Source of the DNA: Microcystis aeruginosa NIES-843
GTDB lineage: Bacteria > Cyanobacteriota > Cyanobacteriia > Cyanobacteriales > Microcystaceae
Length of the DNA stretch: 32,000 bases
Assembly: GCF_000010625.1 (NCBI RefSeq)
Contig: NC_010296.1
Coordinates: 1,470,001-1,502,000, forward strand
Reading direction: 5' to 3'
Each line of letters starts with the position of its first letter. The stretch's first letter is position 1. The notes beneath the pieces were generated by a model, which saw nothing but the letters and a program-made list of their open reading frames with translations, was not told the origin of the DNA and did no database searches. A program made the position numbers and the translations under genes. This document shows positions 4,409-32,000 of the stretch, in pieces.

Positions 4409-4760
4409 CTACTTACGAAGGCGTTCGGGATCAGTAGAGTGAGTAGATTCCAAACAAAACCCACGAGTCTTGAGAATCCCGAAAAGGGTTTCAATCCCCC
4501 AGCGTAGAGCGTAATCGCGAACAAGTCCGACCGTATGGGTCGGAGCGATCACTACCAAGAGGTCTCCGTCGTCCAAACGCAGAGCTTCAACGGAAACCTG
4601 ATCACCCCACACCCGACAATCCTCTTGGAGTTGTTGAGATTCTCCCCGAACCAGATGGGCAAAAACGACTTGAGCGGCTAAGGCTTTCCCGGACCGTTCG
4701 ATCTTGTCGGTAGCCCGAATCCGGATTCGGAAAGGCAGAGAAGGTTCGAGGAGAAGATAA
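4409..4760 (-). pseudogene. IS4-family transposase, C-terminal piece
   Basis: LLLEPSLPFRIRIR...YALRWGIETLFGILKTRGFCLESTH carries the catalytic-E region of a DDE transposase. Confidence 0.75.
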
Positions 4761-14929: not shown

Positions 14930-16504
14930 ATGGATAATCTGCAACTCTGGCAACGTTACCAAGATTGGTTATACTATCACCCTAACCTAGAACTTTATCT
15001 CGATGTCAGTCGGATTCCCTTCGATGAGGCTTTTCTCAAAGGTCTAGAAGCAAAATTTGAGCGCGCTTTCCAAGATATGGCAGCTTTAGAACAGGGTGCG
15101 ATCGCAAATCCCGACGAACAGCGTATGGTCGGCCACTACTGGCTGCGCGCTCCTGAACTCGCTCCTAACCAGGAATTGCGGGACGAAATCACCGAACCGA
15201 TAGCACAGATCAAAGAATTTGTCAAGAAAATTCACTCTGGAGCGATTAAGCCGCCCAATCGGGCAAAATTTAGCCATATTCTCTGTGTAGGCATCGGGGG
15301 GTCTGCTTTGGGTCCCCAATTCGTTGCCGAGGCTCTATCCCCCCTTAATCCCCCCTTAGAGATTGCTTTTATTGATAATACCGACCCCAAAGGTATCGAT
15401 CGCACCCTAGCCCATTTACCCTTAGCTACCACCCTCGTTATCGTCACCAGTAAATCCGGCGGCACTCCCGAAGCGAGAAACGGAATGTTAGAGGTCCGCA
15501 ACGCTTACGAAAAACTGGATTTAGACTTTCCGCAACACGCAGTCGCCGTCACTATGCCGGGTAGCCAACTAGACAAATACGCCCAAGATTGGCTAACTCG
15601 TTTCCCCATGCAGGATTGGGTCGGTGGTCGTACATCAGAACTATCCGCCGTCGGTCTTCTCCCGGCCGCTTTGCAGGGTATCGACATTGATGAAATGTTA
15701 GCCGGGGCCAAAGAAATGGACATGGCCACCCGCGTCCATAACCTGAAAAAAAACCCTAGCGCCCTACTTGCTCTAGCTTGGTATCATGAGGGCAAGGGCA
15801 AGGGAGAGAAAGATATGGTGATTCTGCCCTACAAAGACAGTCTCTATCTCTTTAGCCGCTATCTGCAACAATTGGTAATGGAGTCCCTCGGTAAAGAAAA
15901 AGACCTCGATGGTAATAAGGTGTACCAAGGGATCGCCGTCTATGGTAACAAAGGTTCTACGGACCAACACGCCTACGTCCAACAATTACGAGAAGGTGTT
16001 CCCAATTTCTTCGCCACTTTTATTGAAGTGTTAAAAGACCGGCAAGGAGATTCGATAGAAGTGGAAACTGGCTCCACTGCCGGCGATTTCCTCTCAGGAT
16101 TACTGCAAGGTACTCGACAAGCTTTATACGAAAATAGTCGTCACTCTATCACTATCACTATCCCAGAGGTCACTCCCCGTCAGGTAGGGGCTTTAATTGC
16201 CCTCTACGAACGGGCCGTTAGTTTCTATGCTAGTTTAGTTAATATTAACGCCTACCATCAACCCGGGGTAGAAGCAGGGAAAAAAGCCGCCGCTTCTATT
16301 CTGGATTTACAAAGAAAAATCGTGCAAGTTGTTCGGGAAACGGGAACTTCTCTCGACCTAGCCACTCTAGCGGCCAAAATCGGCGCTAGTGACCAAGTTG
16401 AAGCTATCTATAAAATTGTCCGTCATCTCAACGCTAATCGGCGCAGTTTAACTATTACCGGCGATTTAAGCAAACCGGAAACGCTCCAAATCTCTACCCG
16501 CTAA
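14930..16504 (+). CDS. pgi: Glucose-6-phosphate isomerase
   Basis: 524 aa with [18 protein letters not shown] and [18 protein letters not shown] motifs of the PGI family. Confidence 0.95.
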
Positions 16505-16543
16505 TCAGTTATCAGTTATCAGTTATCAGTTATCAGTTATCAG
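16505..16543. repeat. STRR-like heptamer tandem repeat (TCAGTTA x5.5)
   Basis: Read directly. It starts at the base after the pgi stop codon. Confidence 0.9.
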
Positions 16544-16617
16544 ATGTAAGTTTTAAGTTAATTAGTTAGTTATCTTTATCTTTATCCCTGTTTACTGATC
16601 ACTGAATGTAACCAACC

Positions 16618-23383: not shown

Positions 23384-23520
23384 CGAGCTATTATCCTCTA
23401 GGGGCGAAACGAGATTAAAAAGTTTTCACTCCTCACACTCTAGCTTATCGCTTTCCATCTTGACCGGGGAGGGAGACGAAGTCAGTTATTTTAGCCGTCG
23501 GTAGGCAGGAGTCAGGAAAT

Positions 23521-23568
23521 AGGGTGATAGGGTTTTGGGGTGATAGGGTTTTGGGGTGATAGGGTGAT
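23521..23568. repeat. 16-bp tandem repeat GGTGATAGGGTTTTGG (~3 units)
   Basis: Read directly. Confidence 0.85.
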
Positions 23569-23576
23569 GAGACAGC

Positions 23577-23832
23577 TTCCCCACTTCCCCAATTCCCCAC
23601 TTCCCCAATTCCCCAATTCCCCACTTCCCCACTTCCCCAATTCCCCAATTCCCCAATTCCCCAATTCCCCACTTCCCCAATTCCCCACTTCCCCAATTCC
23701 CCAATTCCCCACACCCCACACCCCACACCCCACACCCCAATTCCCCAATTCCCCAATTCCCCACTTCCCCAATTCCCCACTTCCCCACTTCCCCACACCC
23801 CACACCCCACTTCCCCACTTCCCCACTTCCCA
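23577..23832. repeat. C4-tract array: octamers TTCCCCA(A/C) interspersed with heptamers CCCCACA
   Basis: I count 32 CCCC runs between 23579 and 23824: 17 octamers, 4 heptamers, 7 octamers, 2 heptamers, 2 octamers. Confidence 0.95.
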
Positions 23833-23920: not shown

Positions 23921-25267
23921 ATGCAGTTTGCCAAGATATTAATCGCCAATCGCGGGGAAATCGCCTTAAGAATCCTTCATAGTTGCGAAGAATTGGGCAT
24001 TAGAACCGTTGCCGTCCACTCTACCATCGATCGCCATGCCCTTCACGTTCAACTGGCCGATGAGAGTGTTTGTATTGGTCCGCCCCCAAGCAGCAAAAGT
24101 TACCTAAATATCCCTAATATCATCTCGGCTGCCCTAACACGCAACGCCACGGCGATCCATCCCGGTTACGGTTTTTTGGCAGAAAACGCCCGCTTTGCCG
24201 AAATTTGTGCCGATCATCAGTTAACTTTTATCGGTCCGTCTCCCAGTGCTATTCTGGCTATGGGGGATAAATCTACCGCTAAAAAAACCATGCAAAAAGC
24301 GGGAGTTCCCACTATCCCCGGCAGTGGTGGTTTAATTACCTCAGAAGCGGAAGCAAAACGTATCGCTGATGACATCGGTTATCCTGTCCTGATCAAAGCC
24401 ACCGCCGGCGGTGGAGGGCGTGGGATGCGTCTTGTCAAGAGTGCAGATGAACTAGGTAATATGTTAAAAGCCGCCCAAGGGGAAGCAGAAGCGGCTTTTG
24501 GCAATTCAGGAGTATATCTAGAAAAATTTATCGAATGTCCCCGACATATCGAGTTTCAGATTTTGGCCGATAGTCACGGTAACGTGATCCATTTAGGAGA
24601 AAGAGACTGTTCGATTCAGCGACGACACCAAAAACTGCTAGAAGAGGCACCCAGCCCCTTCTTAACGCCCCATTTACGCTCAAAAATGGGTAATGCCGCC
24701 GTTAAAGCCGCTAAATCGATTAATTACGTCGGGGTGGGAACTGTGGAATTTTTAGTCGATAAACACGGCAATTTTTACTTCATGGAAATGAACACCCGTA
24801 TTCAGGTGGAACACCCCGTCACGGAGATGATCACGGGGATAGACCTGATCCGAGAACAAATTCTGGTGGCACAGGGCGAAAAACTGCAAATTAAGCAAGA
24901 TCAGGTGATATTTAGAGGGCATTCGATCGAGTGTCGCATTAATGCCGAGGATCCCGATCACAATTTTCGCCCTCACCCCGGCAAAATTAGCGGTTATCTG
25001 CCCCCCGGCGGTCCCGGTGTCCGCATGGATTCCCACGTTTACACCGATTACGAAATCCCCCCCTATTACGATTCCCTAATCGGTAAATTAATTGTCTGGG
25101 GAGAAAATCGCGAAACTGCGATTAAACGCATGAAACGCGCCCTGCGGGAATGTGCGATCACGGGAGTACCGACGACTATTGATTTCCATCGTAAAATATT
25201 GGAAACTCCCGCCTTTTTAGCCGGAGATGTTTACACTAATTTCATCCAAGAACATCTCTTGCCCTAG
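23921..25267 (+). CDS. accC: Acetyl-CoA carboxylase, biotin carboxylase subunit
   Basis: 448 aa with [14 protein letters not shown], the ATP-grasp GGGGRGMR motif, [14 protein letters not shown] and the other hallmarks of the family. Confidence 0.95.
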
Positions 25268-25310
25268 CGCGTTACCATGAATTTTAGACGAGAGTAGGTT
25301 GGGGATAATA

Positions 25311-25880
25311 ATGACAGTAGAAGTTAAATTTAACTCGTTTCAACTCAGCGATGAACAGTTCTTTCAACTTTGTCAGGATAACCGAGATTTGCGCTTGGAA
25401 CGCAACCCAAAAGGAGATTTAATTATTATGCCACCGACTGGAGGAGAAACCAGCAATTCTAACGCTGGAATCACTGCCCAATTATGGTTATGGAATAACC
25501 TACATAAATTAGGTGTAGTTTTTGATTCTTCTGGAGGATTTAAACTACCTAACGGAGCCGATCGCTCTCCCGATGCTGCTTGGATACCTTTAGAAAAATG
25601 GCAAGCTTTAACCCCGCAACAAAAGGAAAGATTTTTACCTCTATCTCCCGATTTTGTCATTGAATTAATGTCTCCTAGTGACAACATAGAAACCGCTAGG
25701 AAAAAAATGCAGGAATATTTAGATAATGGGACTCGTTTAGGTTGGTTAATCAATAGAAAAACTAGAGAAGTGGAAATTTATCGTCAAGGACAGGCAGTAG
25801 AAATTTTCACTAATCCTGAGAGTTTATCGGGGGAAAATATTTTATCTCAATTTGTCTTAGAACTTGATAGTATTTGGTAA
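25311..25880 (+). CDS. Uma2-family (DUF820) putative endonuclease, tandem copy 1
   Basis: LERNPKGDLIIMPPTGG, SPDAAW and PDFVIELMSPSD motifs. I chose the ATG at 25311 over the track's TTG at 25299. Confidence 0.85.
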   Translation: MTVEVKFNSFQLSDEQFFQLCQDNRDLRLERNPKGDLIIMPPTGGETSNSNAGITAQLWLWNNLHKLGVVFDSSGGFKLPNGADRSPDAAWIPLEKWQALTPQQKERFLPLSPDFVIELMSPSDNIETARKKMQEYLDNGTRLGWLINRKTREVEIYRQGQAVEIFTNPESLSGENILSQFVLELDSIW

Positions 25881-25910
25881 TTATATAATCCTATAAAAGA
25901 GAATCTAAAC

Positions 25911-26486
25911 ATGATGACAGTAGTAGAAATTAAATTTGAATCTTGGCAACTCAGCGATGAACAGTTTTTTCAACTTTGTCAGGATAACCGAGATTTGCGC
26001 TTGGAACGCAACCCAAAAGGAGATTTAATTATTATGCCACCGACGGGAGGAAAAACGGGCAATAGTAACGGTAGAATCACCCAACAATTATTTAATTGGT
26101 CAGATAACAATGGTACGGGTATCGCTTTTGATTCTTCCACAGGATTTAAACTACCGAATGGGGCCGATCGGTCTCCCGATGCTGCTTGGATACCTTTAGA
26201 TAAATGGCAAGCTTTAACCCCGCAACAAAAGGAAAGATTTTTACCTCTATCTCCCGATTTTGTCATTGAATTAATGTCTCCTAGTGATAGCCTAGAAACT
26301 GCTAGGAAAAAAATGCAGGAATATTTAGATAATGGGACTCGTTTGGGTTGGTTAATCAATAGAAAAACTAGAGAAGTAGAAATTTATCGTCAAGGACAGG
26401 CAGTAGAAATTTTCACTAATCCAGAGAGTTTATCGGGGGAAAATATTTTATCTCAATTTGTCTTAGAACTTGATAATATTTGGTAA
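25911..26486 (+). CDS. Uma2-family putative endonuclease, tandem copy 2
   Basis: Same motifs. Preceded by the conserved spacer TATAATCCTATAAAAGAGAATCT. Confidence 0.85.
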   Translation: MMTVVEIKFESWQLSDEQFFQLCQDNRDLRLERNPKGDLIIMPPTGGKTGNSNGRITQQLFNWSDNNGTGIAFDSSTGFKLPNGADRSPDAAWIPLDKWQALTPQQKERFLPLSPDFVIELMSPSDSLETARKKMQEYLDNGTRLGWLINRKTREVEIYRQGQAVEIFTNPESLSGENILSQFVLELDNIW

Positions 26487-26512
26487 TTCTATAATCCTAT
26501 AAAAGAGAATCT

Positions 26513-27088
26513 ATGATGGCAGTAGTAGAAATTAAATTTGAATCTTGGCAACTCAGCGATGAACAGTTTTTTCAACTTTGTCAGGATAACCGAGATTTAC
26601 GTTTGGAACGCAACGCAAAAGGAGATTTAATTATTATGCCACCAACCGGAGGAGAAACTGGTAATTCTAACGCTGGAATCACTGCCCAATTATGGTTATG
26701 GAATAACCTACATAAATTAGGTGTAGTTTTTGATTCCTCCACGGGGTTTAAACTACCGAATGGGGCCGATCGCTCTCCCGATGCTGCTTGGATACCTTTA
26801 GAAAAATGGCAAGCTTTAACCCCACAACAAAAGGAAAGATTTTTACCTCTATCTCCCGATTTTGTCATTGAATTAATGTCTCCTAGTGATAGCCTAGAAA
26901 CTACTAGGAAAAAAATGCAGGAATATTTAGATAATGGGACTCGTTTAGGTTGGTTAATCAATAGAAAAACGAGAGAAGTAGAAATTTATCGTCAAGGACA
27001 GGCAGTAGAAATTTTAACTAATCCAGAGAGTTTATCGGGGGAAAGTATTCTGCCAGAATTTAGTTTAAATCTTACTTTGATTTGGTAA
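26513..27088 (+). CDS. Uma2-family putative endonuclease, tandem copy 3
   Basis: Same motifs and the same spacer upstream. Confidence 0.85.
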   Translation: MMAVVEIKFESWQLSDEQFFQLCQDNRDLRLERNAKGDLIIMPPTGGETGNSNAGITAQLWLWNNLHKLGVVFDSSTGFKLPNGADRSPDAAWIPLEKWQALTPQQKERFLPLSPDFVIELMSPSDSLETTRKKMQEYLDNGTRLGWLINRKTREVEIYRQGQAVEILTNPESLSGESILPEFSLNLTLIW

Positions 27089-27165
27089 ATCAGAGGTAGT
27101 GATTGCCGTTTAACGCTTTGCTTTGTTGGGCATTGTCTTCATCGATAAAATACCGAACTTGAGTT

Positions 27166-27633
27166 TTAAGGAAGATAGTCAGAATCAAGGATTTCTGCAA
27201 GGGTGAAGGGGGATTCAATCGGGAATAAATCAGCAGAGAGAAGATACTTTCTTACAGTATCTTCTCTGGCTGCTTGGTAACAATCTATCCAGATTTCAGG
27301 AATCAATCTTCTCAGACTTGGACTCTCTTTTAATAAGCGTTGAACTTGTCGGCGTTGTTCAACAATTGTGCTGCGCCATCCTTGAGCATTTGCTTCCTTT
27401 TCAGTTAGCCAGTAAGTCAATTTAAGCAAATGTTCGGCAATGACGGTTAAGCGACTTTCTAGTTCTCGTTTTTCACTCCTTCCCATCGTTTCAATTTCTT
27501 CGATCAAATTTTCCAGGTCTAATTTTTCAAAACGATGTTCTTTGAGTAAATTAGCGGTTTCTTGTAACCATCGGTAGAAATCTTCTTGATAAAGACTTTT
27601 ACCTGAGGAGACTAAAGACTTTTCGATGCTCAT
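27166..27633 (-). CDS. DUF29-family protein
   Basis: 155 aa. YQEDFYRWLQETANLLKEHRFEKLDLENLIEEIETMGRSEKRELESRL is the DUF29 signature as I recall it. Confidence 0.8.
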   Translation of the reverse strand: MSIEKSLVSSGKSLYQEDFYRWLQETANLLKEHRFEKLDLENLIEEIETMGRSEKRELESRLTVIAEHLLKLTYWLTEKEANAQGWRSTIVEQRRQVQRLLKESPSLRRLIPEIWIDCYQAAREDTVRKYLLSADLFPIESPFTLAEILDSDYLP

Positions 27634-27732
27634 TTGATGATGACCTAGAAAAAAGAATTCTTAGATAATTTAGAAGCGAATCCCCGATCTCAAAAAGATT
27701 GGCAGAATATCGCAGGATGACCCCTTAAAACA

Positions 27733-28332
27733 TCAGAGCTTTAAATTTAAGCTAAAATTGGGTAAAACATCTTCACCCGACAAATCAGTGGGATTTTCTA
27801 AGATCTCCACTTCCTTTCCTTGACGATAAATTTCAACTTGCCGATTCTGCGGATCGATTAACCAGCCTAACCTTGCGCCATTTTCCCTATATTCGAGCAG
27901 TTTTTTCTGTAATTTGTCAAGACTATCAGATTCAGAGCGCAATTCCACCACAAAATCGGGACAGAGGGGAATAAATCCCTTTTTCTGCTTAGGGGTTAAA
28001 GATTCCCAGCGTTCTCGACTCACCCAAGATAGATCAGGAGAACGAATCGCCCCATTTGGCAGTATAAATCCAGTGGAAGAGTCAAACCCGACTCCTAAAG
28101 CTTCGTTTTCTTCGCACCAGCGACCCAGTTGAGTCGTTAAGCTAAAATTACGCTGTCCTGATTCGCCACCTGTCGGGGGATTCACGATTAATTCTCCTTG
28201 GGCTGTACGTTCTAATTTTAAGTCACGGTTGACCGCAGCAAGGGCTTCAAACTGTTCAAGGGTGATAGAGAGAGCGATCGCGCTAGGAATTTCTAAGGAG
28301 AGGGTTTCGGGTGAGGTGGTAACTGCTAACAT
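27733..28332 (-). CDS. Uma2-family putative endonuclease, divergent fourth copy
   Basis: LERTAQGELIVNPPTGG, SPDLSW and PDFVVELRSESD motifs. Same strand as the DUF29 gene and 99 bp upstream of it. Confidence 0.85.
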   Translation of the reverse strand: MLAVTTSPETLSLEIPSAIALSITLEQFEALAAVNRDLKLERTAQGELIVNPPTGGESGQRNFSLTTQLGRWCEENEALGVGFDSSTGFILPNGAIRSPDLSWVSRERWESLTPKQKKGFIPLCPDFVVELRSESDSLDKLQKKLLEYRENGARLGWLIDPQNRQVEIYRQGKEVEILENPTDLSGEDVLPNFSLNLKL

Positions 28333-28390: not shown

Positions 28391-28503
28391 CCCCCCTTAT
28401 CAAGGGGGGCAAGGTAGGGTTGATTCATGAATCAACCCTACCCTGAATCAACCCTACCCTGAATCAACCCTACCCTGAATCAACCCTAGGGGCAGGGGGG
28501 ATC
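28391..28503. repeat. Compound repeat: hairpin, 26-bp perfect palindrome and 16-bp tandem repeat x3.7
   Basis: Hairpin CCCCCCTTATCAAGGGGGG at 28391-28409. Palindrome TAGGGTTGATTCATGAATCAACCCTA at 28415-28440. Tandem units GAATCAACCCTACCCT at 28429-28492. Confidence 0.9.
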
Positions 28504-28702: not shown

Positions 28703-30298
28703 GTGTTCTACGCTATTGATTTCGGAACCAGTAATACCGTCATTACTCGTTGGAATGGGGCGACAAATAGGGCCGAAACCGTCAAATTATCGGAGTTATC
28801 CCAACAAATAGTCGACAATCCCCCCCTAATTCCCAGTTTACTCTATATCAAATCAGCCAATCCCCTGCAAGTAATTGCCGGTCAAGCGGTACGGGATCGG
28901 GGTTTAGATAGCGATCGAGATCCGCGTTTTTTTCGTCGCTTTAAACGAGGTATCGGGGCAAAAATTCAAGGATTTTTACCGGAATTAGAGGAAACTGTCC
29001 TCAGTTTCGAGGGAGTTGGCCAATGGTTTCTCGATAGCATCATCGACCACTTAAAAAACACCACCCTGGAAACCCCCCAATCGCTAGTTTTAACCGTTCC
29101 CGTCGATAGTTTTGAAAGTTACCGCAATTGGTTAAGTAATGTTTGTCAGGGATGGGAAATCGAACAAATTCGCCTAATTGATGAACCCACGGCCGCCGCT
29201 TTGGGTTATGGAAGCACGGGTGATCAAGTGATTTTAGTGGTAGATTTTGGCGGTGGCACCCTCGATCTTTCTTTGGTACAATTAGATTTAGATAATCCTC
29301 AAAAAAATCAAGGTTTTATTCTCAAGTGGGGAGAAAAACTTTTAGGCAATAATTCCGCCCAAAAAACTAAACTAGCGAGAGTTTTAGCCAAGGCGGGGAC
29401 AAATTTAGGGGGGTCAGATATCGACGATTGGATTGTCGATTATTTTGCCCAAAAGCAATCTTTAGTGAAAACTTCCCTGACTACTCGTCTAGCAGAAAGA
29501 TTAAAAATTAAACTTTCTTCCCAATTAACCGCCGAGGAGGTATATTTTGATGAGGAAAATTTCGAGAGTTATGAGTTAAGCTTGGATCGAGAACAATTGA
29601 CCGATATTCTCCAACAACAAAACTTTTTTCATCAATTAGATGATTTAATGACGGGAGTTTTGCAACAGGGAAGACGCAATGGAGTTGAAGTTAGCGATAT
29701 CGATGCGGTGTTATTAGTCGGGGGAACCGTCCAAATTCCGGCGGTAAAAGATTGGGTGCGACAGTATTTTGATAGTAGTAAAATTAAAGAGGATCGACCC
29801 TTTGAAGCGATCGCTTTGGGAGCGTTACAATTAGCCCAAGGTTATCAAGTCAAAGATTTTCTCTATCATAGCTACGGCATTCGTTACTGGAATCGTCGCA
29901 AAAATGCCCACGCTTGGCATCCAATTATTAACTCTGGACAACCCTATCCTATGGAAAAACCCGTGGAATTAGTCCTAGGTGCTTCCGTGGACAATCAACC
30001 CAGCATTGAGTTAATTATCGGCGAATTAGGCACAGAAAGTGGAGCAATGGAGGTTTATTTTGATGGTGATAAATTAATTACTCGTTCCCTGAGTAATGGA
30101 GAAACTAGCGTCCAACCCTTAAATGATCGCGAGGGGGCCCGATCGATCGCTAAACTCGATCCTTTAGGTTTTCGGGGTAAAGATCGCATTAAAGTGCAGT
30201 TCTGGATTGATGATCAGTGTTTTCTGCGGATTAATGTGGAAGATTTACTCAGTCAAGAATTGTTACTAAATAATCAAATCGTCACCAAATTAAGCTAG
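28703..30298 (+). CDS. Hsp70-family protein lacking the canonical C-terminal lid
   Basis: 531 aa with a GTG start. Actin-like ATPase motifs AIDFGTSNT, IDEPTAAALGYG, VVDFGGGTLDLSLV and LLVGGTVQIPAV, followed by a short beta-rich C-terminal part. Confidence 0.85.
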   Translation: MFYAIDFGTSNTVITRWNGATNRAETVKLSELSQQIVDNPPLIPSLLYIKSANPLQVIAGQAVRDRGLDSDRDPRFFRRFKRGIGAKIQGFLPELEETVLSFEGVGQWFLDSIIDHLKNTTLETPQSLVLTVPVDSFESYRNWLSNVCQGWEIEQIRLIDEPTAAALGYGSTGDQVILVVDFGGGTLDLSLVQLDLDNPQKNQGFILKWGEKLLGNNSAQKTKLARVLAKAGTNLGGSDIDDWIVDYFAQKQSLVKTSLTTRLAERLKIKLSSQLTAEEVYFDEENFESYELSLDREQLTDILQQQNFFHQLDDLMTGVLQQGRRNGVEVSDIDAVLLVGGTVQIPAVKDWVRQYFDSSKIKEDRPFEAIALGALQLAQGYQVKDFLYHSYGIRYWNRRKNAHAWHPIINSGQPYPMEKPVELVLGASVDNQPSIELIIGELGTESGAMEVYFDGDKLITRSLSNGETSVQPLNDREGARSIAKLDPLGFRGKDRIKVQFWIDDQCFLRINVEDLLSQELLLNNQIVTKLS

Positions 30299-30322: not shown

Positions 30323-30360
30323 GGGGGCAGGGTGTGGGGTGTGGGGTGTGGGGTGTGGGG
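30323..30360. repeat. G-rich heptamer repeat (GGGGTGT x4 plus GGGGG)
   Basis: Read directly. It is the reverse complement of the CCCCACA units in the 23577-23832 array and starts 25 nt after the Hsp70-like stop. Confidence 0.9.
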
Positions 30361-30385
30361 TTTTACCGATTTTGAGGTAGTCAGT

Positions 30386-31037: not shown

Positions 31038-32000
31038 TTAAGACATTATTAATAAATTCCGGCGTAGGCGATCGAGGGCGGTATAGGCACTAATCTGGCG
31101 AATTGTCAAGCGATCTCGATTTTCTCCGAAACGATGCTCTGATACGGTAACATTTCCCTCAGGACTGGCTAAACCGATATAAACTAGGCCCACGGGTTTT
31201 GTCTCACTGCCTCCTCCTGGTCCGGCAATACCCGTGATACTGATCCCCCAATCCGTAGCGAGGCGTTTTTGCACCCCTAGCGCCATCTGTTGGGCAACAA
31301 TGGCACTGACAGCCCCGAAATTATTTAAATCCCCTTCATTTACGTCTAAGAGGGCAACTTTTACCCGATTATCGTAGGAAATAACCCCACCCCCAAAATA
31401 ATCGGAACTGCCGGCGATTTGGGTGATAATTTCCCCTAATCCCCCTCCAGTACAGGATTCTGCCACACTCAAAGTTTGTTTTTGCCACCGCAAAAGTTCC
31501 CCCACCACCGCAGGTAAAGTATCATCATCAGCCCCAAAATAATCTAATCCGGCGATTTCCTTAATTTCCGTCGCTACCGGTTCAATTACCTGCAAAGCAG
31601 CCTCTAAAGAAGGGGCTTTGGTCGCAATTCGCAAACGCACTTCGCCTAAACTAGCATAGGGGGCAACGGTGGGATTAGTCAGATCAAATAAATGGGCAAC
31701 TTTTTCCGCTAAAGCTGACTCACCGATACCGCGAAATTTGAGGTAACGACTATAAATCCTCTCTTTGCCCCATCCTTGACTTTCTAGGTAAGGAATCGCC
31801 GTTTCTACCCACATTCTCTTCATTTCTGAGGGTACTCCGGGGAAAGTGAGAATAGTCACGTTAGCCTCTGGTTGCCAGATCATTCCGGGGGCGGTTCCCG
31901 TCGGATTTGGCAAAAAATCGGCTCCCATGGGTATTAAAGCCTGTTTACTGTTACTAGGAGGCATTTCTCGCCCTAAGCTCGTAAATTTAGCCTCGATTTC
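31038..32000 (-). CDS. cinA: CinA-family protein (competence/damage-inducible; NMN deamidase domain), 5' end beyond the window
   Basis: C-terminal PncC-like domain (SVAESCTGGGLG, GISITGIAGPGGG) and part of the MoCF-like N-domain. The frame stays open to nt 32000. Confidence 0.9.
   Translation of the reverse strand, partial: EIEAKFTSLGREMPPSNSKQALIPMGADFLPNPTGTAPGMIWQPEANVTILTFPGVPSEMKRMWVETAIPYLESQGWGKERIYSRYLKFRGIGESALAEKVAHLFDLTNPTVAPYASLGEVRLRIATKAPSLEAALQVIEPVATEIKEIAGLDYFGADDDTLPAVVGELLRWQKQTLSVAESCTGGGLGEIITQIAGSSDYFGGGVISYDNRVKVALLDVNEGDLNNFGAVSAIVAQQMALGVQKRLATDWGISITGIAGPGGGSETKPVGLVYIGLASPEGNVTVSEHRFGENRDRLTIRQISAYTALDRLRRNLLIMS

Follow-up and report, generated by a model that had tools for sequence, protein, structure and literature searches.

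Tandem Uma2 paralogues 3' of accC in Microcystis aeruginosa: copy number, recombination and a patch in two forms

How does a cyanobacterial chromosome come to hold three near-identical genes in a row, alike over most of their length and divergent in a few short segments, and what might such copies encode? This question is raised by a locus of Microcystis aeruginosa NIES-843 that lies in a stretch of 32,000 nucleotides (nt) of its chromosome (NC_010296.1, positions 1,470,001 to 1,502,000, forward strand; the whole stretch is called the window hereafter). Here, three genes of the Uma2 family (DUF820, COG4636) stand head-to-tail, starting 44 nt 3' of accC, and face two genes of the opposite strand: a DUF29 gene and another member of the Uma2 family, named gene 4. 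Comparison of this array with its relatives points to a cassette of paralogues shaped by unequal crossing-over, which carries an old patch in two forms, A and G, and encodes putative solo nucleases, as the likely explanation.

Copy number and mosaic structure of the array

About 45 related loci, labelled L001 onward, were compared. Ten Microcystis assemblies that share the gene order were retrieved with the exact accC protein; further loci came from species-representative genomes that were scanned, from contigs that encode the exact copy 2 protein (10), and from metagenomes scanned with a 23-mer of the G patch (9 array-bearing loci). Across these loci, the array at the accC site counts one, two or three copies, in addition to decayed forms. 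Two copies are found in most strains, a single copy in L038 (A form) and L064 (G form), and three copies in the window, L004, L011, and L049-L058. Every three-copy array has the same layout: when each copy is described by its N-terminal block, patch and C-terminal end, and the terminal blocks are called 'first' or 'last' after copies 1 and 3 of the window, the order is first-A-first, last-G-first, last-A-last. In all 10 further contigs that encode the exact copy 2 protein, this protein is the product of the middle gene, and the layout recurs in several metagenomes and in the genomes of independent isolates, one of them a complete chromosome.

The patch is not tied to one position. The G form sits in the middle copy of all three-copy arrays, in the first copy of L002, L006, and L012, and in the last copy of L001, L010, L013, L017, L061, L062, and L068; it is absent from the arrays of L005, L007, L009, L014, and L015. 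Both forms are present in about 10 of the 17 classifiable genomes, and no (G,G) array was seen among the arrays compared. Moreover, the N-terminal block, the patch and the C-terminal block are found in every combination, and the N-terminus itself can be hybrid, as in MTVEVKF|ESWQ (L002, L006, L012) and MMTVVE|VKFNSFQ (L001, L010), where the junctions mark crossover breakpoints directly.

In the window, the nucleotide alignment of the three copies assigns 38 private sites to copy 1, 35 to copy 2 and 35 to copy 3. These sites are tightly clustered (p <= 5e-5 per cluster, 20,000 random placements) in a 5' block of copy 1, in a patch of copy 2 that holds 32 of the 35 private sites of its coding region, and in a 3' block of copy 3 that is positional in every strain except L014. 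An initial annotation, made from the sequence of the window, had described segments in which the grouping of the copies disagrees. The three tight blocks are confirmed, but they represent private clusters and not incompatible trees, because with only three sequences each variable site is necessarily private to one copy; the window alone thus displays three local blocks of divergence, and it took the population sample to prove recombination formally. The variable segment of copy 2, given as approximately 26049-26135, is real, with a measured extent of 26052-26125. The likeness between the C-terminus of copy 3 and gene 4, proposed in the same annotation, holds at the protein level, while the nucleotide identity at the 3' end (67% for copy 3, 62% for copies 1 and 2) lies within the gene-wide background of 48-71%. 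The resemblance is a retained family consensus (LP.F.LNL) and not the product of exchange, and gene 4 was rejected as donor of the copy 3 C-terminus since 62-67% is background.

The recombination tests were run on 30 unique gene sequences. Specifically, the four-gamete test fails for 3039 of the 5253 pairs of informative sites, the pairwise homoplasy index (PHI) lies below all 2000 permutations (p<0.0005), and the Hudson-Kaplan procedure requires at least 21 events, or 17 when the patch is left out. Taken with the polymorphism of one to three copies and with the occurrence of all block combinations, these results bear out the original proposal of recombination among paralogues as opposed to simple divergence. 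The further wording 'repeated gene conversion' calls for correction in two of the three segments, since the 5' block, the 3' block and the spacers need only one unequal crossover. In fact, the middle copy joins the 5' part of a 'last' copy to the 3' part of a 'first' copy and has identical spacers on both sides, as produced by one out-of-register crossover between 'first' and 'last' copies: the spacer TATAATCCTATAAAAGAGAATCT precedes both copies 2 and 3, and the first spacer is longer by 4 nt, AAAC. The period of the unit, as returned by the repeat finder across the three copies, is 606 and 602 nt.

The array is also subject to decay. A frameshift is present in L003, while the array copies of L059, L060, L063, and L024 have lost approximately residues 65-108, PD motif included, through what is apparently the same deletion; a dead deletion allele appears to be circulating in the Microcystis population. 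Other internal deletions affect array copies of L020, L065, and L067.

Two loci display larger changes. In L008 (11391-13110), an ISL3 transposase splits copy 1, and unrelated DNA follows on the 3' side (PIN, psbA-like, ppk). In L014, from approximately position 4573, the C-terminus of the last copy is of the 'first' type (SQFVLELAFIW), and neither DUF29 nor gene 4 nor the Hsp70-like gene that lies beyond it in the window was found downstream. In such strains (L008, L014) the array appears to be a rearrangement breakpoint.

Tandem Uma2 pairs were also observed in other cyanobacteria. In Aphanothece hegewaldii (L042, 3254-4543), the C-terminal halves of the two genes are identical and the differences cluster over the helix alpha1 region and the PD strand, while in Limnoraphis robusta (L043, 3411-4570) the two copies are nearly identical. 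The mosaic pattern of the former pair, together with the latter, indicates that mosaic tandem genes are not limited to Microcystis.

The two-form patch and the predicted protein

Form A of the patch reads ...AGITAQLWLWNNL(H/N)KLGVVF and form G reads ...GRITQQLFNWSDNNGTGIAF. The two forms share 54% of their nucleotides, against 96-98% within each form, and outside the patch the genes are about 95% identical whatever the form, the array position or the genome (core identity 96.3% within genomes versus 95.3% between genomes). Only two core patch types were found in 120 array-type protein clusters, two of which are recombinant inside the patch.

Synonymous (dS) and nonsynonymous (dN) divergences were computed according to Nei and Gojobori for copy 2 versus copies 1 and 3. 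In the core, dS is 0.14-0.15 and dN 0.012-0.016 (dN/dS about 0.1), whereas in the patch dS is 0.71-0.86 and dN 0.66-0.69, with a dN/dS of about 0.8-1 that rests on only some 16 synonymous sites and is to be read cautiously. The patch dS is thus about five times the core dS, which indicates old sequence and not fast local evolution. Conversely, the low core ratio denotes purifying selection and therefore copies that encode working proteins, in agreement with the earlier remark that the copies look functional; residues D90, E120, and K134 of the PD-EXX-K site are kept as well.

The origin of the two forms may lie in ancient paralogues with homogenised flanks or in an old import, and both are compatible with a cassette shaped by unequal crossing-over. 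The G form resembles a Uma2 gene of Xenococcaceae (L019; QQLFNWSDRDGTGIAF), with 80% identity in the patch and 68% overall, and the A form resembles genes of Pleurocapsa, of Limnoraphis and of an uncultured cyanobacterium (L023, L037, L043; LWLWNR..LGK.F). Gene 4 was rejected as donor of either form, as its patch nucleotide identity to both is 48-49%. Exact-match scans of viral contigs with both patch forms returned no match, and in the species-representative genomes the G patch is found at no other Microcystis locus. The idea that it has a second genomic context was likewise dismissed: the sole non-array match (L066) is a chance 23-nt match in an unrelated gene.

The array proteins are assigned, from sequence searches and a structural model, to the TT1808-like branch of the PD-(D/E)xK fold. 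Among solved structures, TT1808 of Thermus thermophilus (PDB 1wdj) comes closest, with a match over the full length (phmmer E=8e-34, residues 14-191). A shallow, Microcystis-only alignment gave a poor AlphaFold2 (AF2) model, with a predicted local distance difference test (pLDDT) score of 67.7, and was replaced by an alignment of 92 sequences, which raised the pLDDT to 87.4. The top Foldseek matches (1wdj, 3ot2, 6okh, 9y1l, 3ijm) are all uncharacterised Uma2-type structures and are followed by the nuclease domain of DrdV. In the family, the PD-EXX-K site consists of the Asp of the PD motif, a Glu on the next strand, a Lys on the following helix, and a His, Ser or Thr that opens alpha1 (Feder & Bujnicki 2005, PMC551604). 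The putative site of the array proteins is T49-PD90-E120xM-K134; in the array alignments D90, E120, and K134 show little or no variation, and T49 hardly varies. From these motifs and the fold, the proteins are probably metal-dependent nucleases. The change E48K in G-form copies was considered as the loss of a catalytic glutamate and rejected, given that a wide range of residues occupies position 48 in diverse homologues, although the orthologue group of gene 4 has E there.

The patch is modelled confidently as helix alpha1 (residues 48-67), a turn and a strand (70-74) at pLDDT 93-95, and not as the disordered linker that would have counted against the initial annotation. The positions at which A and G differ are those that vary in the family: their mean column entropy over 75 gene-4-type relatives is 1.05, against 0.49 for the patch positions shared by both forms and 0.56 overall. 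Residues N53, Q59, L60, W63, G70, and F73 are fixed in the patch, and their i, i+3/4, i+7 spacing points to a buried face, with the variable residues 54, 55, 58, 61, 62, and 64-69 then predicted on the exposed face and the loop.

Explanations of the array

The preferred reading combines these results as follows. At a fixed chromosomal site 3' of accC, Microcystis harbours a cassette of Uma2/COG4636 paralogues whose units of approximately 600 bp recombine out of register, and this generates the strains with one, two or three copies. The three-copy form comprises a first copy, a chimera made of the 5' part of the last and the 3' part of the first, and a last copy. Further exchange within and between strains has homogenised the gene bodies to about 95%, with the 74-nt segment persisting as the old A and G forms, 46% divergent, and travelling as a unit between array positions. 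Beyond these points, most layouts with two copies or one could be reached from (A,G,A), or lead to it, through one unequal crossover each; specifically, (A,A), (G,A) and the single copy of L038 would each lie one such event away. The persistence of the patch could be explained by a divergence that blocks recombination starting inside it, by selection that keeps both helix surfaces, or by both, and the variable face of alpha1 with the loop that follows probably tunes the recognition of a substrate or a partner. The genes would be dispensable 'solo' nuclease genes that spread as paralogue cassettes, and not a defence or toxin-antitoxin operon. The evolutionary part of this account, unequal crossing-over with the patch carried as a unit, is held with good confidence and the account as a whole is considered likely, while the biochemical role of the proteins, as predicted from sequence and model, is proposed with much lower confidence.

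Several observations weigh against this account. The (A,G) layouts (L001/L010, L013/L017) need one extra exchange at the N-terminal block, and (A,G,A) is not obtainable from (A,G) or (G,A) by one sister-chromosome crossover, so that an exchange between haplotypes or an extra conversion must be assumed. The direction of change fits either way, from three copies to two or from two to three. The excess of similarity within genomes over that between genomes is small, 1 percentage point, and the patch dN/dS calls for the caution stated above. The exposure of the variable face is deduced from periodicity and conservation and not from coordinates. Lastly, no demonstrated biochemical activity or genetic data were found for any Uma2 protein in the literature searched.

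A role in defence or addiction had been suggested for the array at the outset on the grounds of its architecture. The evidence collected here goes against it: the neighbours are housekeeping genes (accC, hisD, Hsp70-like, cinA) in the strains compared, no adjacency to DUF29 recurs elsewhere, the matches to defence profiles are weak, and copies decay frequently. In PADLOC, all four Uma2 proteins match two PDC-S03 profiles at 30-34 bits (E 4e-9 to 8e-8), which denotes a distant relative in the same superfamily and not membership, PDC-S03 itself being only a candidate defence family; with these weak matches and no defence or mobile neighbours, the array does not classify as an anti-phage system. 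Nor is a type II toxin-antitoxin pair of Uma2 and DUF29 supported, as their adjacency is not conserved and the genes converge without an operon. At 24 loci outside Microcystis, a search of about 4 kb around the Uma2 homologues returned no DUF29 gene (E<1e-3), and L038, a Microcystis locus, keeps Uma2 without DUF29; the adjacency is specific to Microcystis, and a functional link between the two was rejected for want of co-occurrence outside this genus. The literature on DUF29 is essentially empty. Similarly, a restriction-modification system is not supported: among the genes called up to 10 kb to each side of the array in 10 genomes, no methyltransferase adjoins it, in keeping with a family described as devoid of methyltransferase association (PMC551604); in L003, a Methylase_S/HsdS gene lies about 9-10 kb upstream of the array.

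A more specific form of the defence idea is a balanced system of two specificities, in which the A and G helix surfaces differ in target or partner, selection keeps both, and the array serves as a set of nucleases for defence or self/non-self recognition. It draws on a patch that is strictly dimorphic and old, on the presence of both forms in about 10 of 17 classifiable genomes with no (G,G) array seen, on the high dN/dS at a predicted exposed and family-variable face of a core helix, on the weak PDC-S03 matches and on the Uma2 genes reported inside type III CRISPR clusters in Microcystis (PMC11855584). However, arrays of the type (A,A) or with a single copy, A or G, are common, copies decay often, the locus has no defence genes, methyltransferase or mobile element, the high patch dS denotes age and not acceleration, and the lack of (G,G) may be due simply to G being infrequent and the sample small; this system is regarded as unlikely. 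Its most far-reaching extension is that the exposed face of alpha1 and the loop are the specificity determinant of Uma2, for a target or an oligomer partner, that A and G are a balanced polymorphism, and that unequal crossing-over deals out strain-specific repertoires of nucleases that exclude phages and foreign DNA; this extension is improbable.

Alternatively, the patch could have entered one copy through a single conversion or horizontal transfer from a divergent Uma2 gene and been moved since by unequal crossovers, with no functional meaning. The similarity of the G patch to a Xenococcaceae gene that is much less alike overall, the fivefold patch dS, and the sharp boundaries of the patch agree with such a neutral import, whereas the searches for a donor speak against it: none was found, neither at another Microcystis locus of the species-representative genomes nor in viral contigs, and gene 4 is equally distant from both forms. 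As it is also hard to tell from ancient paralogues with homogenised flanks, a neutral import is regarded as unlikely. Programmed variation (by a diversity-generating retroelement, a shufflon or the phase-variable switching of cassettes) and an assembly artefact from a collapsed or expanded repeat offer only a superficial likeness, that of a local variable segment in tandem repeats, and are effectively refuted and most improbable in view of the existence of just two forms, each 96-98% conserved, of the lack of a reverse transcriptase or recombinase among the called genes nearby, of inverted repeats limited to the homology between copy 3 and gene 4, and of the recurrence of one three-copy layout in independent isolates, a complete chromosome and several metagenomes.

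The locus and known systems

The features of the locus are collected in Table 1. The genes, family assignments, period of about 600 nt, and shared spacer given in the initial annotation are accurate. All four Uma2 proteins (about 190 amino acids, aa) match PF05685 with E 1e-44 to 5e-48 and scores of 152-163 bits, against a Pfam gathering cut-off of 27. Copy 1 can also be read from a TTG codon at 25299 (25299/25311-25880), and the gene callers of related genomes take the ATG at 25311, giving 189 aa.

Table 1. Coordinates of the array, its flanking genes and its divergent segments, as positions of the window
Feature	Position	Strand	Evidence
accC (biotin carboxylase), conserved upstream anchor of the array	23921..25267	+	open reading frame (ORF)
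5' block private to copy 1: upstream leader and first ~17 codons, MTVEVKFNSF	25270..25361	+	
Uma2 copy 1, 'first' type, A-form patch	25311..25880	+	PF05685 E=1e-44
A-form patch of copy 1 (ETSNSNAGITAQLWLWNNLHKLGVV)	25446..25519	+	
Spacer 1, holds TATAATCCTATAAAAGAGAATCT plus AAAC	25881..25910	+	
Uma2 copy 2, chimeric middle copy, G-form patch	25911..26486	+	PF05685 E=8e-47
G-form patch of copy 2, 74 nt (KTGNSNGRITQQLFNWSDNNGTGIA), coding for helix alpha1, a turn and the first part of strand 70-74	26052..26125	+	
Spacer 2, sequence of spacer 1 without AAAC	26487..26512	+	
Uma2 copy 3, 'last' type, A-form patch	26513..27088	+	PF05685 E=5e-48
A-form patch of copy 3	26654..26727	+	
3' block private to copy 3: ESILPEFSLNLTLIW plus unique downstream DNA	27045..27102	+	
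DUF29 gene, 155 aa, convergent with the array	27166..27633	-	PF01724 E=1e-49
Fourth Uma2 gene (gene 4), 199 aa, S-PD-ExR-K type	27733..28332	-	PF05685 E=3.5e-47

Gene 4 is a conserved single-copy orthologue that stands outside the recombining array: it forms only 4 clusters at 90% identity in Microcystis, and its relatives in many cyanobacteria, putative orthologues, are 72-78% identical. In some metagenome contigs, namely L051, L053, L054, and L055, gene calling gives DUF29 a length of 171 aa and not 155, which suggests an alternative upstream start or a small 5' difference. Promoter and terminator scans of the array performed no better than on shuffled sequence and are neutral on co-transcription with accC.

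The outer neighbours are hisD (histidinol dehydrogenase), an Hsp70-like gene and cinA. The last of these, at 31038-31964, was considered truncated, which is only apparent since the gene runs past the end of the window. The Hsp70/MreB-like gene (531 aa, 28703-30298) begins with GTG, lies beside gene 4 in almost all strains and is not a canonical DnaK; its PADLOC match to PDC-M61B, at 20 bits, is very weak and probably meaningless. Between it and gene 4, at 28413-28488, a perfect 15+15-nt palindrome (GGTAGGGTTGATTCA/TGAATCAACCCTACC) is followed by a 16-nt tandem repeat (TGAATCAACCCTACCC, 3.8 copies), and the spacer between the two genes measures about 370 nt in the window, L050, and L051 and about 190 nt in most strains. 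The hisD-accC intergenic region is filled, at 23519-23831, by a tandem repeat of 8 nt (CTTCCCCA, about 33 copies) and another of 16 nt, which yield spurious ORFs of 114-145 aa on both strands (GELGNWG... and PQFPNSP...); as the length of this region ranges from about 290 to 540 nt between strains, the number of repeats is probably polymorphic. Two 7-nt tandem repeats are found elsewhere in the window, namely ATCAGTT (5.7 copies, 16504-16560) between two long ORFs and GGGTGTG (4.6 copies, 30330-30361) just 3' of the Hsp70-like gene.

Among known systems, TT1808 (1wdj) shares with the array proteins a full-length sequence match, the top fold match, a PD-EXX-K site whose lysine has shifted to the helix that follows, and a Thr or Ser in the position of His43, in line with the description in PMC551604. 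The array copies differ in having E-x-M, as opposed to E-x-R in TT1808 and gene 4. The array belongs to the cyanobacterial expansion of the Uma2 family, which accounts for more than 2% of Gloeobacter genes (PMC551604), although membership in this family gives no firm function, as activity is undemonstrated even for TT1808.

A closer parallel is offered by the Uma2 cassettes already described. Uma2 proteins have been proposed as selfish, recombinogenic nucleases that promote tandem duplication (Feder & Bujnicki 2005, PMC551604), and Makarova et al. (2009, PMC2701414) put forward 'cassettes of paralogous Uma2 genes' whose products would be likely solo toxins. The array has in common with them the head-to-tail paralogues, the lack of a conserved antitoxin or methyltransferase partner, the tandem duplication and the strain-variable copy number. 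In contrast to the cross-genome pattern given in those papers, the present data provide the population history of one locus, with its junction copy, its homogenised bodies and its helix patch in two forms; the toxicity and the self-promoted duplication remain hypotheses. The locus is a further example of these paralogue cassettes (2005, 2009) and by itself assigns no function and defines no new type of system. Its value is that of a natural experiment, since Uma2/COG4636 is among the largest uncharacterised gene families of cyanobacteria, with a role that has been open since 2005, and the array offers paralogues about 95% identical that differ by one swapped helix-loop segment of 25 residues, in one to three copies per strain. 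The patch is a concrete target for testing whether helix alpha1 sets the specificity of Uma2, and the locus documents the unequal crossing-over that was earlier proposed, not shown, as the driver of Uma2 tandem expansion.

The concerted evolution of tandem duplicates by unequal crossing-over and gene conversion is a general mechanism, and nothing in the array departs from it. The marks expected of a tandem array under unequal crossing-over, that is, variable copy number, a junction copy with its spacers, and a recombination signal, were all found. The array shares with this mechanism the polymorphism of copy number, the chimeric junction copy, paralogues as alike as orthologues and an island of old divergence that escapes homogenisation.

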